Positions 23,196-64,000 of a stretch of DNA of 64,000 nucleotides are shown here, in pieces; position 1 is the stretch's first letter, and every line of letters starts with the position of its first letter. Origin of the DNA: Eledone cirrhosa (taxonomy: Eukaryota); contig OZ024743.1 in the NCBI GenBank assembly GCA_964016885.1, positions 53,816,001-53,880,000 of the forward strand. Direction: 5' to 3'. The position numbers and the translations under genes were made by a program. The notes beneath the pieces were generated by a model, which had not been told where the DNA came from, did no database searches, and saw only the letters and a list, made by a program, of their open reading frames with translations.

Positions 23196-23942
23196 TTTTC
23201 CGACCAGCTTTGGCGTTCTGATGTCCCCCTCCCTGCCATTTCTCTAGTCGTCCCTCTACCCCTACCCCCACCCATACTACTTCCTTCACCTGAACCCTTG
23301 CCTGTATAGATACGCTTACCATTATCTGCCCCTCCCCGACTTACTTTTCCCATCAGACCAGTTTACAACTAAGATAAACTCAAGCGAAGCAGTGGCAAAA
23401 TCTGTGACCTATTTTTTCACATCCTACAAATAGGACTACACCTATGATAAGGCTTGCTGAACACACAAGCTGAAACTGCTTGGCACCGTGGTCGGGATTG
23501 TACATCTCTCTCTCTCTCTCTCTCTCTCTCTCTCTCTCTCTCTCTATATATATATATATATATATATATATATATATATATATATATATATATAACATAT
23601 ATATATATATATATATATATATAACATATATATATATATATATATATATATATATATATATATATATATATATATATATATATATATATATAACATATAT
23701 ATATATATATATATATATATATAACATATATATATATATATATATATATATATATTTATAACATATATATATATATATATATATAACATATATATATATA
23801 TATATATATATATATATATATATAACATATATATATATATATATATATATATATATATATATATATATATATATAAATATATATATATATATATAGAGAG
23901 AGAGAGAGGGAGAGAGAGAATAAGAATTGCATTTTTTATTTT

Positions 23943-24109
23943 AAACTTTATTTCATATTACAATTGTTTCTATGTGGATCAGCTCGGGATTGATCAGTCG
24001 TTCAGATCCCGACGCTTAATCGACGCTACATCTGATAAGGGATTTTACATGGGTTTTATCAAACCCGAGCTGATCGATATAGAAACAATTGTAATATGAA
24101 ATAAAGTTT
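23943..24109. mobile_element. Fold-back short element with degenerate hammerhead (CTGATAA 24032 ... GAAACAATTGTA 24082-24093, AATAAA)
   Basis: Arms 23943-23995 and 24058-24109 are reverse complements; related 3' half at 33893-33931. Confidence 0.6.
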
Positions 24110-24555
24110 CACAGAAAGCTGCAATTCTCATTGTCACTTTATATATACACTGCAAACTACAACCCCCTTAAACTTGGAGCACAACCTAATGAGAGACGGA
24201 CCTTGTAACACCATTGAGTGCTTCGACCACCCTCACCCTTAGTACCCTCAGGTTACTCACATGATAACATATATATATATATATATATATATATATGTGT
24301 GTGTGTGTGTGTGTGTGTGTATGTGTGTGTGTGTATGTCTGTGTGTATGTGTGTGTGTGTGTGTGTGTGTGTGTGTGTGTGTCTGTGTGTGTGTACACAC
24401 ACACAGACACACACACGCACACACACACACACACATATATATATATATATATATATATATATATATATATATATATAAATGAGAGGTATAGAGATTGTTT
24501 AGCAAGAAGCTAACGACATTCTATAACATATATATATATATATATATATATATAT

Positions 24556-24831
24556 ATAAAAGGTATATATTCAGTTAAAAACTCAAAATAGTCTCTTGCA
24601 ATTAAATAGCTCAAGGAAAGAGATTTTTCCGAGCCGTATATTATAATTGAATATAAAAGAGAAATAAACACAGATATATACACATATGAGTTCAAATCGT
24701 AAGGGACCAGCATCGCTAGGCTGAAAAAAATACCAACTATAACCAATAGGGTTTGCCAGACTCAATTTAAAAGAATAAATCAAGAAAATAAATACAAACC
24801 GGTATGGGATAACTACCAAACACCCAGACAG
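24556..24831 (-). mobile_element. (TA)n-flanked short element, homologous to 61392-61665 (region downstream of hammerhead)
   Basis: Clear reverse-complement similarity, also visible in the ORF track (24510..24746 versus 61476..61781); TA repeats on both sides. Confidence 0.8.
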
Positions 24832-25361
24832 TATATATTATATATATATTATTTATATATTATATAGATATAGATATATATAATATATATATATATTTAT
24901 ATATACATATATATATATATATATATATATACACACACACACTCATATATATATATATATATATATATATATATATATATATATATATATATATATATAT
25001 ATATATATGTTATATATATATATATATATATATATAACACAAGGACGATTTGTTAAGCCTTCATAAACGTAATGAAGGCTTAAGAAATCGTCCTTGTATT
25101 ATTATATCATACTCTGTCTAGCTCTACACCTCGCCACTGACGTGAACCTAACCTCGAGTGCTCACCTGGGTGAATCTACAGTAACTTACCGTTACACTCC
25201 CTGGATATATACATATATATATTTAACTGTTGGTCAATCAATGATAAATATTGATTGCCAACTAAATTAACTACAGGGATATAAAATATACGGACGTGAG
25301 TGTGTTTAATTACATATTTCTGGCTATATTATAACAACATGACCTTCCCCAAATATAATAT

Positions 25362-25452
25362 AGAGGTCTGACGAGCTTTTGATTCCAGAGACGGATTAGA
25401 CCGATAGAGATCGAACCTTGAGCTGATCAATAGCGAAACGCGCGTCACTACT
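25362..25452 (+). ncRNA. Type I hammerhead ribozyme motif with ~45-nt insertion in loop II
   Basis: CTGACGA 25368-25374; stem II GCTTTTGAT/ATCAATAGC; GAAAC 25435; palindromic stem III ACGCGCGT; GTC cleavage triplet ending 25446; stem I AGAGGT/ACTACT; AATAAA follows. Confidence 0.75.
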
Positions 25453-25499
25453 CAATAAACGTAATGATGACATAACATATCATCAGACACCATTGGTTG

Positions 25500-60350: not shown

Positions 60351-60435
60351 AATGCTGCTGTCTGATGAGAACACGTGAATGGTTAAATAACCAAGTGACC
60401 AAGATCGTCATTGAAATATGTATCACAGCTGTATT
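60351..60435 (+). ncRNA. Type I hammerhead ribozyme motif with enlarged stem II
   Basis: Stem I AATGCTGCTGT/ACAGCTGTATT; CTGATGA 60362; GAAAT-ATGT-ATC 60413-60424. Confidence 0.68.
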
Positions 60436-61320
60436 AATAACGAACTCTTTAACATCTACAACTTATTATAAGAACAGATTACAGTTTAAGCAAAGAATCG
60501 CTGCTTTCACCCTTAACGGGATCTTCTGAAAGCAGTGATTCTTTAATGTTTAATCTGTTCTTATAATATATATATATATATATATATATATATATATATA
60601 TATATATATATATATATATATATATATATTAGGATTGGTGCTCTGAAATAGCGATGTAAACATGAATGTATGTATAGTATATTTGGCAATATACCGTATG
60701 TTTAATTAAAAACATTTTGAAGACCATACGCTATCAGTTTTAAAGTAGTGACTATGTCCCTTACTGCTTTTCGACGAAAGAAGGAAGAGAAGCTAACAGT
60801 CTGTTCACGCTGTTGGCGATCATCAGAGCCACGCACCGAAAATTATAGAAGCTGGATTCTTATAGAATTCCAGTAATAGTCAGGAGCTGATTATACAAAG
60901 CGGTTGCCGGTCCACCAAAAATTAGGTATTAGGATTGGTGCTCTGAAATAACGATGTATGTATAGTATATTTGGCAATATACCGTATGTTTAATTAAAAA
61001 CATATATATAGTATAATTGAATATAAAAGAGAGATAAACACAGATATATACATATACGGCTCGGAAAAATCTCTTTCCTTGAGCTATCTTGAGCTATTTA
61101 ATTGTAAAAGACTATTTTGAGTTTCTGACTCAATATATACCTTTGATATATTCGGCTCCTTCAATTTGTTGAGCTAATTTAAATGTCGACTAAACTTGGC
61201 TGCTATTTTTTAGTAGTATACGTTTATGACACGCTATGTTCTGATGCCATGTGCGTTATTTTATATACGCACACTATTCAGTTTTCTGAGATACTTAGAA
61301 GTGATAAGTTTGCTAATTTT

Positions 61321-61403
61321 ACATCCACTGATGAGCAAAAAGAATTGGTAATTCTCTTCACAATTAAATTGCGAAACAGCATCACCAAACGCTGTCTGGG
61401 TGT
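61321..61403 (+). ncRNA. Canonical type I hammerhead ribozyme motif
   Basis: Stem I ACATCCA/TGGGTGT; CTGATGA 61328; stem II GCAA/TTGC; GAAAC 61373; stem III ACAGC/GCTGT; GTC triplet 61394-61396. Confidence 0.85.
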
Positions 61404-63027
61404 CTGGTAGTTTCCACAATTCCGGTTTGTATTTATTTTCTTGATTTATTCTTAAATTGAGTCTGGCAAACCCTATTGTTCATAGTTAGTATCTTATTCA
61501 CCCTAGCAAACCTGGTCCCTTACGATTTGAACACATATGTCTATATATCTGTGTTTATCTCTCTTTTATATTCAATTATAATGTACGGCTCGGAAAAATC
61601 TCTTTCCTTGAGCTATTTAATTGTAAGAGACTATTTTGAGTTTCTAACTAAATATATACCGTTTATATATATATATATATATATATATATATATATATAT
61701 ATATATATATATATATATATATATATGCAACAGTTCTATTTAAATTGTTGGGATACAACAAGCAAATATTTTTATAACTGATATAAAGCACTCGACAAGT
61801 ATTTGGAGTAGATATACGATATTAACAAATGGAAACTATATTTATAAAACCATATTTATTTCATTATACATATTTCAAGGATACCAAGTTAAATGATGGT
61901 ATACCTTCATCAGACAAAATACAATATATACCAGTTTTATAAATAAACATTGACGTACCCTTTCAAAATGCAACCGTTACTTTTGGAAGACATCAGGATA
62001 TCCTGACGTCTTGTAACTTGGTATCCTTGAAATATGTATAATGAAATAAATATGGTTTTATAAATATAGTTTCCATTTGTTAATATCGTATATATATATA
62101 TATATATGTATATATATATATATATATATATATATATATATATATATATATATATATATATATATATATATATATATATATCATCATCATCATCATCTTC
62201 GTTTAACGTCCATCTCCCACGCTAGCATGGGTTAGATATATATATATATATATAATGCTTGACACGTCCAACTCTGGAAGAAAGCTGAGATAGAGATACA
62301 TCTTTTGGAATCAAATCACAATCTATTTCGAATAAACTGGCTCTCTGTATGGTAATAAAGAGTATTTCACCACCCCTCTATATAAATTACAACACATGCC
62401 ACACATATACTGATGTTATACATGTAAACATTTTGAAATTTATTTTAACAGTTGACCACTTAACCCATATTGGTCAACCTTTGCGAGAAAATTATATCTG
62501 GATGAGTGCGTGTGTGTGTGTGTGTGTGTGTGTGTGTGTGTGTGTGTACGTGTGCGTGCGTGTGTGTGTGTGTGTGTGTATCTATTTATGTGCACGTGTG
62601 CGTGCATGTGTGCGTGATCGTACGTATGTGTGAATGTGTGTGTGAGTGCGTGAGCGTGTATGTGTGTGTGTGCGTGTGTGTGTACAGAAAGAGACCACAG
62701 TTAAATACAGTACTCAATAGATTAAGGGAAACAAAAGTAGGGATAATGATGGCGAGAGGAGTAGGAGGAGACAGGACAATATATTTCATGTATAAATAAC
62801 TTCTACAGGACTAGGACTGTTTCATTCGGTTGAAATCACAAGGAAAGTCCTGATGAGTTGAACTGAATGAAACCATTTCTATAAGAAATAAATTATATGT
62901 AAAAATGAAATGATAGAAGCCAATAATATATATCTGTGTATAATTGCCTCCTGTGTTTTGTTTGTTCATTTTCAACTATATATATATATATATATATATA
63001 TATATATATATATATATATATATATAT

Positions 63028-63535
63028 ATGAATGTATATACAGTGTATTTTGCAATACACTGTATGCTTAATTAAAATCATTTCGAAGAACTTACGCTAT
63101 TGTTTTAGAGTAGTGACAGTCTCACTTACTTCAATTTTCAGCAAATAAGGGAGATAAAGCTGACAGAGCTCTGTTTCGCACTTTTTGGTTATCAAAGCTA
63201 GCTAATCAGGAATTGATTATACAATTTCTGCTTGACCGGCAACCGCTCTGTATAATCAGTTCCTGATTTGACAGGAATTCTATAAGAATCAAACATTCAT
63301 AATTTTCAGCAAACAGGCGGAGTAGTTAGCTTTGATAAGCACCAAAAAGTGCGAAACAGAGCTCTGTCAGCTTTATCTCCCCTATTTGCTGAAAATTGAA
63401 GTAAGTGAGACTGTCACTACTCTAAAACAACAGCGTAAGGTCTTCGAAATGCGTTTAATTAAGCATACAGTGTATTGCAAAATACATTATATATACATTC
63501 ATATATATATGGCTATTTCAGAGCTCCAATTCTAA
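63028..63535. mobile_element. Family D fold-back element in (TA)n
   Basis: 63028-63200 is the reverse complement of ~63328-63505. Confidence 0.85.
63303..63395 (+). ncRNA. Hammerhead motif with U3-A8 core variant and long stem I
   Basis: AGCT-TTGATAA(63332)-GCAC-CAAAAA-GTGC-GAAAC-AGAGCTCT-GTC-AGCT; stem I extended by TTTTCAGCAAA.AGG.GGAG/CTCCCCT.TTTGCTGAAAA. Confidence 0.72.
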
Positions 63536-64000
63536 TATACATATATATATAAATATATATATATATATATATATATATATATATATATATATATACAATG
63601 ATATTAAATAAATGGAAACTATATTTATAAAACCATATTTATTCTGTTATATATATTTCAAGGGTACCAACAATTTTGGTACGCTATCATCAGATAAAAT
63701 AAACTGTTGAGTGCTCTGAATCAGTTATAAACACTTATATTTGTTGAATTACCAACAAATTGAATATCTCTTCTGCATACACACATCTATATATATATAT
63801 ATATATATATATATATATATATATATATGATGGCTGACCCCTCGTTATCGAGTATGGCCATTGCACGAGAAAAAAAAGACTTAATAATAACAATAATAAT
63901 AATAATAACAACAATAATAATAACGACAACAACAACAATAATAATATACATATATATATATAGACACACATGCACGCAAATAAACATATCTATACACACA

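Follow-up and report, generated by a model that had tools for sequence, protein, structure and literature searches.

In this study, hammerhead ribozyme (HHR) motifs and the elements that carry them were analyzed in 64 kb of the Eledone cirrhosa genome (contig OZ024743.1 of the 3.0-Gb assembly GCA_964016885.1; C4:53816001-53880000). This whole stretch is called the window; it is AT-rich, microsatellite-dense animal DNA. The motifs very probably fold as hammerheads and lie where Penelope-like elements (PLEs) have their 3' ends. Five families (A, B, C, I, and J) would be truncated coding elements, and three (D, E, and F) would be tandem units without open reading frames (ORFs) that the same reverse transcriptase (RT)-endonuclease (EN) likely copies in trans. 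The reading is based directly on folds, covariation, ORF linkage, unit structure, and the positions of insertion ends; the enzyme identity for D, E, and F, the priming mechanism (from an anole PLE), cleavage, and any circular RNA we infer. A previous reading of the DNA letters (the sequence-only reading) had placed the motifs at (TA)n and linked them, as type I HHRs, to PLEs of many lineages; this part of it was supported.

Identification of hammerhead motifs

The type I HHR descriptor consisted of the core CUGANGA or UUGANAA, GAAA, UH, and stems I-III. Because it was composed after the window candidates had been inspected, it was run unchanged on 40 independent genome samples. A stricter initial descriptor gave only 6 matches, missing the U.U-closed and U3-A8 forms. 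Ten intact type I matches were found in the window, against 0.06 ± 0.24 (maximum 1) in 200 local dinucleotide shuffles. Their cores lie at 25368, 34235, 34811, 38175, 50301 (-), 59732 (-), 60362, 61328, 61913 (-), and 63332. All six families named in the sequence-only reading had at least one intact match. The core was kept with a stem mismatch at 35138 (-) (the site given as 35098), 34599 (-), and 63693 (-). Four sites described as decayed (24032, 32949, 41663, and 60050) were shown by their relatives to be HHR relics. Families G and H and one at 62850 were additional to those listed earlier. AATAAA, said to stand just downstream of several motifs, was present within ~45 nt of the cut at 2 of the 7 plus-strand sites tested.

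The Rfam search suggested earlier returned two HH9 matches, at 63315-63390 (28.1 bits) and 35080-35155 (-) (25.9 bits); no HH9 match reached the gathering score of 52 among the best 150 of 202 rows. The output was dominated by microsatellite microRNA matches. The direct-repeat families given by a repeat finder were all microsatellite, and masked self-BLAST was used instead.

Conservation of the fold

For family D, 16 rows were hand-picked for diversity from 67 + 3 matches and aligned. The alignment was 91.8% paired, with two-sided change in 17 of 28 pairs. These included the core 3-8 pair, which was U3-A8 in 13 rows and C3-G8 in 3 rows. None of 500 shuffles was as good, and slid controls gave 33-45%. 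U3-A8 is a published variant of PLE HHRs (PMC4209133). The motifs are considered type I HHR folds, with self-cleavage predicted from sequence. Most families would cut mainly as dimers, in tandem transcripts, because stem III is palindromic. Family F may cut as a monomer, since its stem III is stable. Among four families co-folded as dimers, pairing by way of stem III was recovered for B, C, and A.

Families linked to coding elements

Each family was searched in its own genome, with 40 candidates scored and 20-30 loci examined; first-look counts are lower bounds and not copy numbers. Families A, B, and C were assigned by motifs, without a tree, to the Hydra-clade PLEs. Family B is represented by a 5'-truncated element at 36990-38306 (+) with TA tracts on both sides. 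It contains the RT end, a GIY-YIG ORF (37240-38007), and a 3' untranslated region (UTR) with an HHR core at 38175 and a predicted cut after 38204. A stub at 34100-34304 is composed of an inverted arm (34100-34223) and a direct arm (34225-34304, core 34235). All 30 B loci had one common sharp 3' end, with (TA)3 behind it in 29; their 5' ends were variable and inverted arms were frequent. In longer B copies, RT coding sequence is followed by that of a C-terminal GIY-YIG, with RWR, DKT, CxCx5C, CxxC, and CxH motifs and without CCHH (RT 4085-5094 and EN 5167-5676 at locus L185). The ORF at 37240-38007 had been called a Naiad ORF; it is placed in the Hydra clade instead, because RT precedes a C-terminal GIY-YIG with a CxCx5C linker. 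Pfam gave no family at useful significance for the two EN ORFs of the window.

Family A forms a stub at 25362-25745 (+), with its core at 25368, a predicted cut after 25446, and a short interspersed nuclear element (SINE) inserted at 25483-25654. It is the 3' end of a Hydra-type PLE with a ~1.5 kb 3' UTR. Hydra-type EN was reached after a three-step upstream walk of ~1.5 kb. The A HHR lay nearby in 24 of 25 step-two loci. At step three, at least 3 of 20 loci (L367, L374, and L382) extended into a Hydra-type EN with the CxCX5C linker, the walk covering the element as far as its EN region.

Family C is likewise a Hydra-type PLE 3' end, with a ~1.2 kb 3' UTR. Its plus-strand stub lies at 34769-34907 (core 34811). 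Copies on the minus strand are located at 34418-34608 (core 34599, stem mismatch), 50188-50370 (core 50301), 59649-59774 (core 59732), and 63596-63779 (core 63693, stem I mismatch), and a subfamily copy at 61737-62088 (-) has its core at 61913 and an inverted arm at 62018-62088. Hydra-like EN coding sequence was present upstream, past the ~1.2 kb UTR, in 2 of 30 loci (L056 and L058). Upstream sequence of 600-1380 nt was common to 6 of 30 loci. The EN end alone was reached, at 35% to B.

Family J, a two-armed stub at 32604-33189 (+) with its core at 32949, is the 3' terminus of a PLE that is young (97-98% identity). RT and GIY-YIG lie upstream, and at locus L315 a CX2-5CxxC linker stands between RT and the C-terminal EN. 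The core was intact in 23 of 25 family copies. J was classed as Neptune-type by this linker motif, without a tree; a homologue search for J returned no informative name. Family I is an older non-Hydra PLE at 41210-41760 (+), with a GIY-YIG ORF (41210-41578) and, behind it, a minimal HHR that has decayed (core 41670). This HHR has lost 4 nt compared with its relatives, which carry RT fragments and GIY-YIG. The sites at 32949 and 41670 had been regarded as non-coding units. Both lead to RT/GIY-YIG ORFs, one of which (41210-41578) is in the window.

Tandem units lacking open reading frames

Family D is a non-coding tandem unit of 318 nt and 36% GC. Its insertion at 63030-63535 (+) contains an inverted arm (63030-63219) and a unit (63225-63535) with a U3-A8 core at 63332 and a predicted cut after 63368. 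A copy lies at 34972-35278 (-) (core 35138), and a relative at 60630-60923 (-) has a C3-G8 core at 60826 and has lost one A of GAAA. Family F is a non-coding tandem unit of 530 nt and 33% GC. At 61007-61663 (+) it forms a partial tandem with a short inverted arm, a core at 61328, a stable stem III, and a predicted cut after 61396; a 3' fragment at 24559-24831 (-) is without HHR. The stub of family E at 60325-60466 (+), with its core at 60362 and a predicted cut after 60424, is the 3' part of an ORF-less tandem unit of ~1,410 nt (period 1,409 nt).

In D, the end of the unit stood directly ahead of its start in 27 of 30 loci. Among the F loci, 29 of 30 started within a preceding unit, and in 8 of 20 E loci the unit start had its own tail upstream. 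Because these head-to-tail junctions are fixed, the short unit is taken as the full-length element. The longest Met-ORF was 29 aa in D and 75 aa in F. No sense-strand RT or EN was found upstream in 30 D loci or 30 F loci, and no PLE-protein match was found within the E unit. An RT-EN adjoining an E copy at L152 was rejected as its parent, being a separate element. An E fragment was also observed within a larger repeat amplified on C18 and C27, beside a long CAC/TAC-rich tract (L277-L294 and L348-L354). The sequence-only reading had described unrelated families of 100-350-bp units; not all are unrelated, and the unit sizes are 318, 530, and ~1,410 nt. Its proposal of non-autonomous retrozyme-like units was supported for 63332, 61328, and 60362. 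The motifs at 25368, 34235/38175, and 34811 are truncated ends of coding PLEs.

Two intact HHRs one unit apart were present in 2 of 30 D loci, a tandem HHR pair in 0 of 30 F loci, and a partial second HHR in one E locus (L165). None of the 30 F loci spanned two cut sites, the start nearest to the upstream cut lying 14 nt downstream of it, compared with ~8 of 30 D loci that did. This contrast fits monomer cutting by F and a dimer requirement in D, and short source loci would also explain it. Families D, E, and F appear to work like non-long terminal repeat (non-LTR) retrozymes. Their membership in that class is incomplete, because tandems with two HHRs are rare and circular RNA is only predicted.

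Insertion ends and proposed mechanism

Insertion ends were measured in loci retrieved for other families; overlapping loci may count twice. Rows G and N were dropped since their references contained TA runs, and E and A had only 1 and 3 matches. Two clustered 3' ends were found past the cut, at +38/+102 in B, +142/+167 in D, +189/+285 in F, and +207/+252 in J. TA stood directly behind the 3' end in 24 of 26 cases for B, 14 of 29 for C, 11 of 17 for D, 6 of 10 for F, and 12 of 19 for J, against a background of 7.6%. The (TA)n association proposed earlier was thus supported at element 3' ends and not by the distance of cores from (TA)5 (given below). The footprint of clustered 3' ends, TA behind, and scattered 5' ends was shared by D and F with the coding families B and J. 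The 5' ends did not accumulate at the cut, with only 3 of ~79 lying within 3 nt of it. A simple model in which the cut RNA serves as the template is therefore disfavored. D and F are likely non-autonomous, retrozyme-like passengers, because they carry a PLE footprint of two fixed 3' ends off the cut site, a TA target, and an inverted arm.

In the mechanism considered likely, the GIY-YIG domain would nick (TA)n, and reverse transcription would begin at either of two fixed positions inside the element, ~40-290 nt downstream from the ribozyme, giving two fixed 3' ends per family. Reverse transcription would usually halt early or switch, producing an inverted arm, and most insertions would therefore be short stubs keeping the HHR region only. 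HHRs may be over-represented because they lie near the priming sites. D, E, and F would borrow the PLE enzyme in trans. PLE insertions have been reported to be partial tandems, truncated at the 5' end, that have a tail and inverted arms (PMC8557442). In an anole PLE, two internal priming sites define the tail, AT-rich DNA is nicked, and HHR cleavage is dispensable for insertion in vitro (PMC11167929).

Assessment of alternatives

The closest alternative is that D and F are classical non-LTR retrozymes, in which circular RNA made by the HHR is copied by rolling reverse transcription. It differs from the preferred reading in the template alone and is considered possible, on the unlikely side. 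The unit sizes and GC contents of D and F are within or near the published 170-400 nt and GC <45% (PMC7229834), insertions longer than one unit are common, and the two D loci with paired HHRs would be explained. A tandem linear transcript accounts for the same pattern, however, and both the scattered 5' ends and the lack of tandem HHRs in 30 F loci speak against a circle. It is improbable that all families, D, E, and F included, are truncated ends or internal-deletion remnants of coding PLEs, with no separate non-coding class. Five of the eight traced families did lead to ORFs, A only after three steps, and each search covered 20-30 loci; against this stand the fixed head-to-tail junctions of D, E, and F, and the diverged subfamilies of D with compensatory changes of their own. 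Naiads favor (TA)n, and Octopus Naiad families have been listed (PMC8557442), which would allow them to drive the elements. This is very improbable: EN follows RT in every linked ORF in which both domains were seen (B, I, and J), while Naiads are described as having an N-terminal EN and no canonical HHR, and as being remnants in cephalopods (PMC8557442). Least credible of all are fold-back DNA elements resembling miniature inverted-repeat transposable elements (MITEs), or motifs that arose by chance in DNA rich in hairpins. Near-perfect palindromes are common among the insertions, but their arms are unequal, 3' ends are fixed per family, and inversion points are variable. Motif counts exceed shuffles more than 50-fold, the covariation of D points the same way, and the ORFs found encode RT/GIY-YIG and not transposases.

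Several results weigh against the preferred reading of folds at PLE 3' ends with passengers copied in trans. The core-to-(TA)5 distance had a median of 153 against 306 by chance, which is not significant in this TA-rich DNA (p = 0.145). For E and A, with 1 and 3 matches, insertion ends were too few to measure a two-end footprint. C occupied core position 4 in 18 of 30 A copies, departing from the consensus, and the core of H, with A at this position, also deviates. C at position 4 has been reported to lower activity in vitro, with viroid infectivity still possible (PMC3088659). Clade assignment relies on motifs in place of a tree. A coding parent, if rare, could have escaped detection among the D and F loci, which were the top matches to full-unit queries; an autonomous partner with sequence common to D, E, or F was not found. 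The shuffle test for D is inflated because the rows are related, and they were also hand-picked. The HHR junction was poorly recovered in monomer minimum free energy folds, with z below -2 for 2 of 7, and D did not pair through stem III in dimer co-folds. In a comparable test on Xenopus, a single dimer among 9 predicted retrozymes was cut in vitro (bioRxiv 10.64898/2026.07.22.740005).

Abundance in the genome

The 40 evenly spaced 10-kb samples covered 400 kb of the genome, with small contigs outside the sample. In this count, two-armed insertions scored twice, and decayed and position-4 variants were excluded. A total of 35 intact HHRs was found, compared with 0.7 in 20 shuffles, so the excess over dinucleotide-shuffled sequence in the window (10 vs 0.06) was reproduced. 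The density of ~88 per Mb extrapolates to ~2.6e5 HHRs per genome (bootstrap 1.5e5-4.0e5). The DNA is dense in predicted ribozymes, in line with the earlier claim; the density is genome-wide and not local, and the window, with 10 in 64 kb, is not exceptional. In 1.6 Mb examined in all, 270 distinct HHR matches formed 47 clusters, 24 of them with at least two members, and stem III was palindromic in 16 of these 24. First-look candidates numbered at least 3013 for B, 2954 for A, 2194 for D, 1889 for F, 1285 for J, 1123 for C, 1040 for I, 972 for M, and 871 for E.

A wider proposal is put forward tentatively and with more doubt than confidence. The genome may hold one of the densest hammerhead populations counted so far (~90 per Mb). 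D, E, and F would be retrozymes, marked by their footprint as passengers in trans of Hydra-type PLEs that target (TA)n; their priming would take place at two fixed positions within the unit and not at the cut. The monomer-competent ribozyme of F would limit its insertions to one HHR, and the dimer type of D would allow two.

Relation to known elements

PLE-borne hammerheads and animal retrozymes are published kinds; new here are the members, their number, and a testable link between enzyme and passenger. The Hydra clade is described as preferring (TA)n and always carrying an HHR, and one of its HHR-bearing elements is already on record for Octopus bimaculoides (PMC8557442). Families A, B, and C resemble Hydra-clade PLEs, including Hydra-1_Obim, in the C-terminal GIY-YIG, CxCX5C linker, RWK-like and DKT motifs, and (TA)n target. 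Like this clade, they have a 3' HHR in which an additional U follows A9 and stem III is palindromic; 5' truncation, a tail, and inverted arms are also common to both (PMC8557442). One RT is like that of Hydra-1_Obim by eye, which, with the SINE described below, was taken as a tentative sign of octopus-like DNA. The HHR sequence listed for Hydra-1_Obim is unlike those of A, B, and C by eye (PMC8557442). Unlike the Hydra clade, A and C have 3' UTRs of 1.2-1.5 kb, and A mostly has C at core position 4.

D, E, and F resemble metazoan non-LTR retrozymes in their non-coding head-to-tail units, type I HHR, low GC, and co-occurrence with PLEs (PMC7229834; bioRxiv 10.64898/2026.07.22.740005). In contrast to the long arrays described there, they are mostly dispersed partial tandems of 1-2 units with inverted arms in (TA)n. 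Further differences are that F and E exceed 400 nt, that F showed no two-HHR tandems in 30 loci, and that no homology to a partner pseudo-LTR was found. Dependence of retrozymes on PLEs was proposed in PMC7229834 and argued from phylogeny in bioRxiv 10.64898/2026.07.22.740005. For animal retrozymes, arguments on which enzyme spreads them have so far drawn on co-occurrence and phylogeny. Non-coding units with a PLE-specific footprint beside young coding PLEs in one genome provide candidate enzyme-RNA pairs and priming sites. No description of octopus retrozymes was found among the open-access papers listed, supplements of the bioRxiv preprint aside.

The motifs are also similar to the minimal PLE hammerheads of PMC4209133: a genome has many sequence families, solo motifs left by truncated PLEs predominate, and U3-A8, a dimer design, and opposite-strand pairs occur. 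The number reported there was 2,000-9,000 per genome, compared with ~2.6e5 here under another descriptor. Axolotl has up to 120,000 retrozyme copies (PMC7229834). The Poseidon PLE of Anolis is comparable in having two internal RT starts that give the tail and an AT-rich target, and the HHR cut was unneeded there in vitro (PMC11167929). It belongs to another clade and has biochemical proof, whereas the priming proposed here was deduced from insertion ends.

Remaining stubs and repeats

Four further families were represented by stubs. Family K is two-armed at 23913-24138 (+), with a decayed HHR (core 24032, C3/A8 mismatch) and a second stub at 33868-33960. Family M, two-armed at 59926-60200 (+), contains a decayed HHR with core 60056 and C3 changed. 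Relatives of 60056 fold with a long stem II, and an interpretation of 60050 as a MITE without HHR was dropped once this fold was seen. Family G, at 35733-35957 (+), is truncated within the HHR, with more stubs at 41815-42010 and 51212-51326. Family H is an HHR-like stub at 42068-42150 (-) (core 42129), with a second at 60467-60535 (-). All 17 H motif matches had A at core position 4 with all stems kept, and 3 matches were present in the 400-kb sample.

Repeats of other kinds were also observed. Two head-to-tail copies of a two-ORF retrotransposon, presumably L1/Tx1-like, occupy 6306-17978 (-); each ends in (AAT)n, and one has an intact frame of 1204 aa. An abundant SINE-like repeat, which we take to be an octopus SINE, is present in about a dozen copies (20094-20479, 25483-25654, 27076-27329, 29682-29898, 42365-42573, and 44006-45798). 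Fragments of further non-LTR retrotransposons lie at 20650-21036 (-), and at 28932-29374 and 53385-53822; we assume these to be REL-endonuclease-like and RTE-like, respectively. A 17-bp satellite has 122 copies at 1639-3728. A near-perfect palindrome of 746 bp at 38365-39110 has 373-nt arms (99%) and a TA tract at its center.

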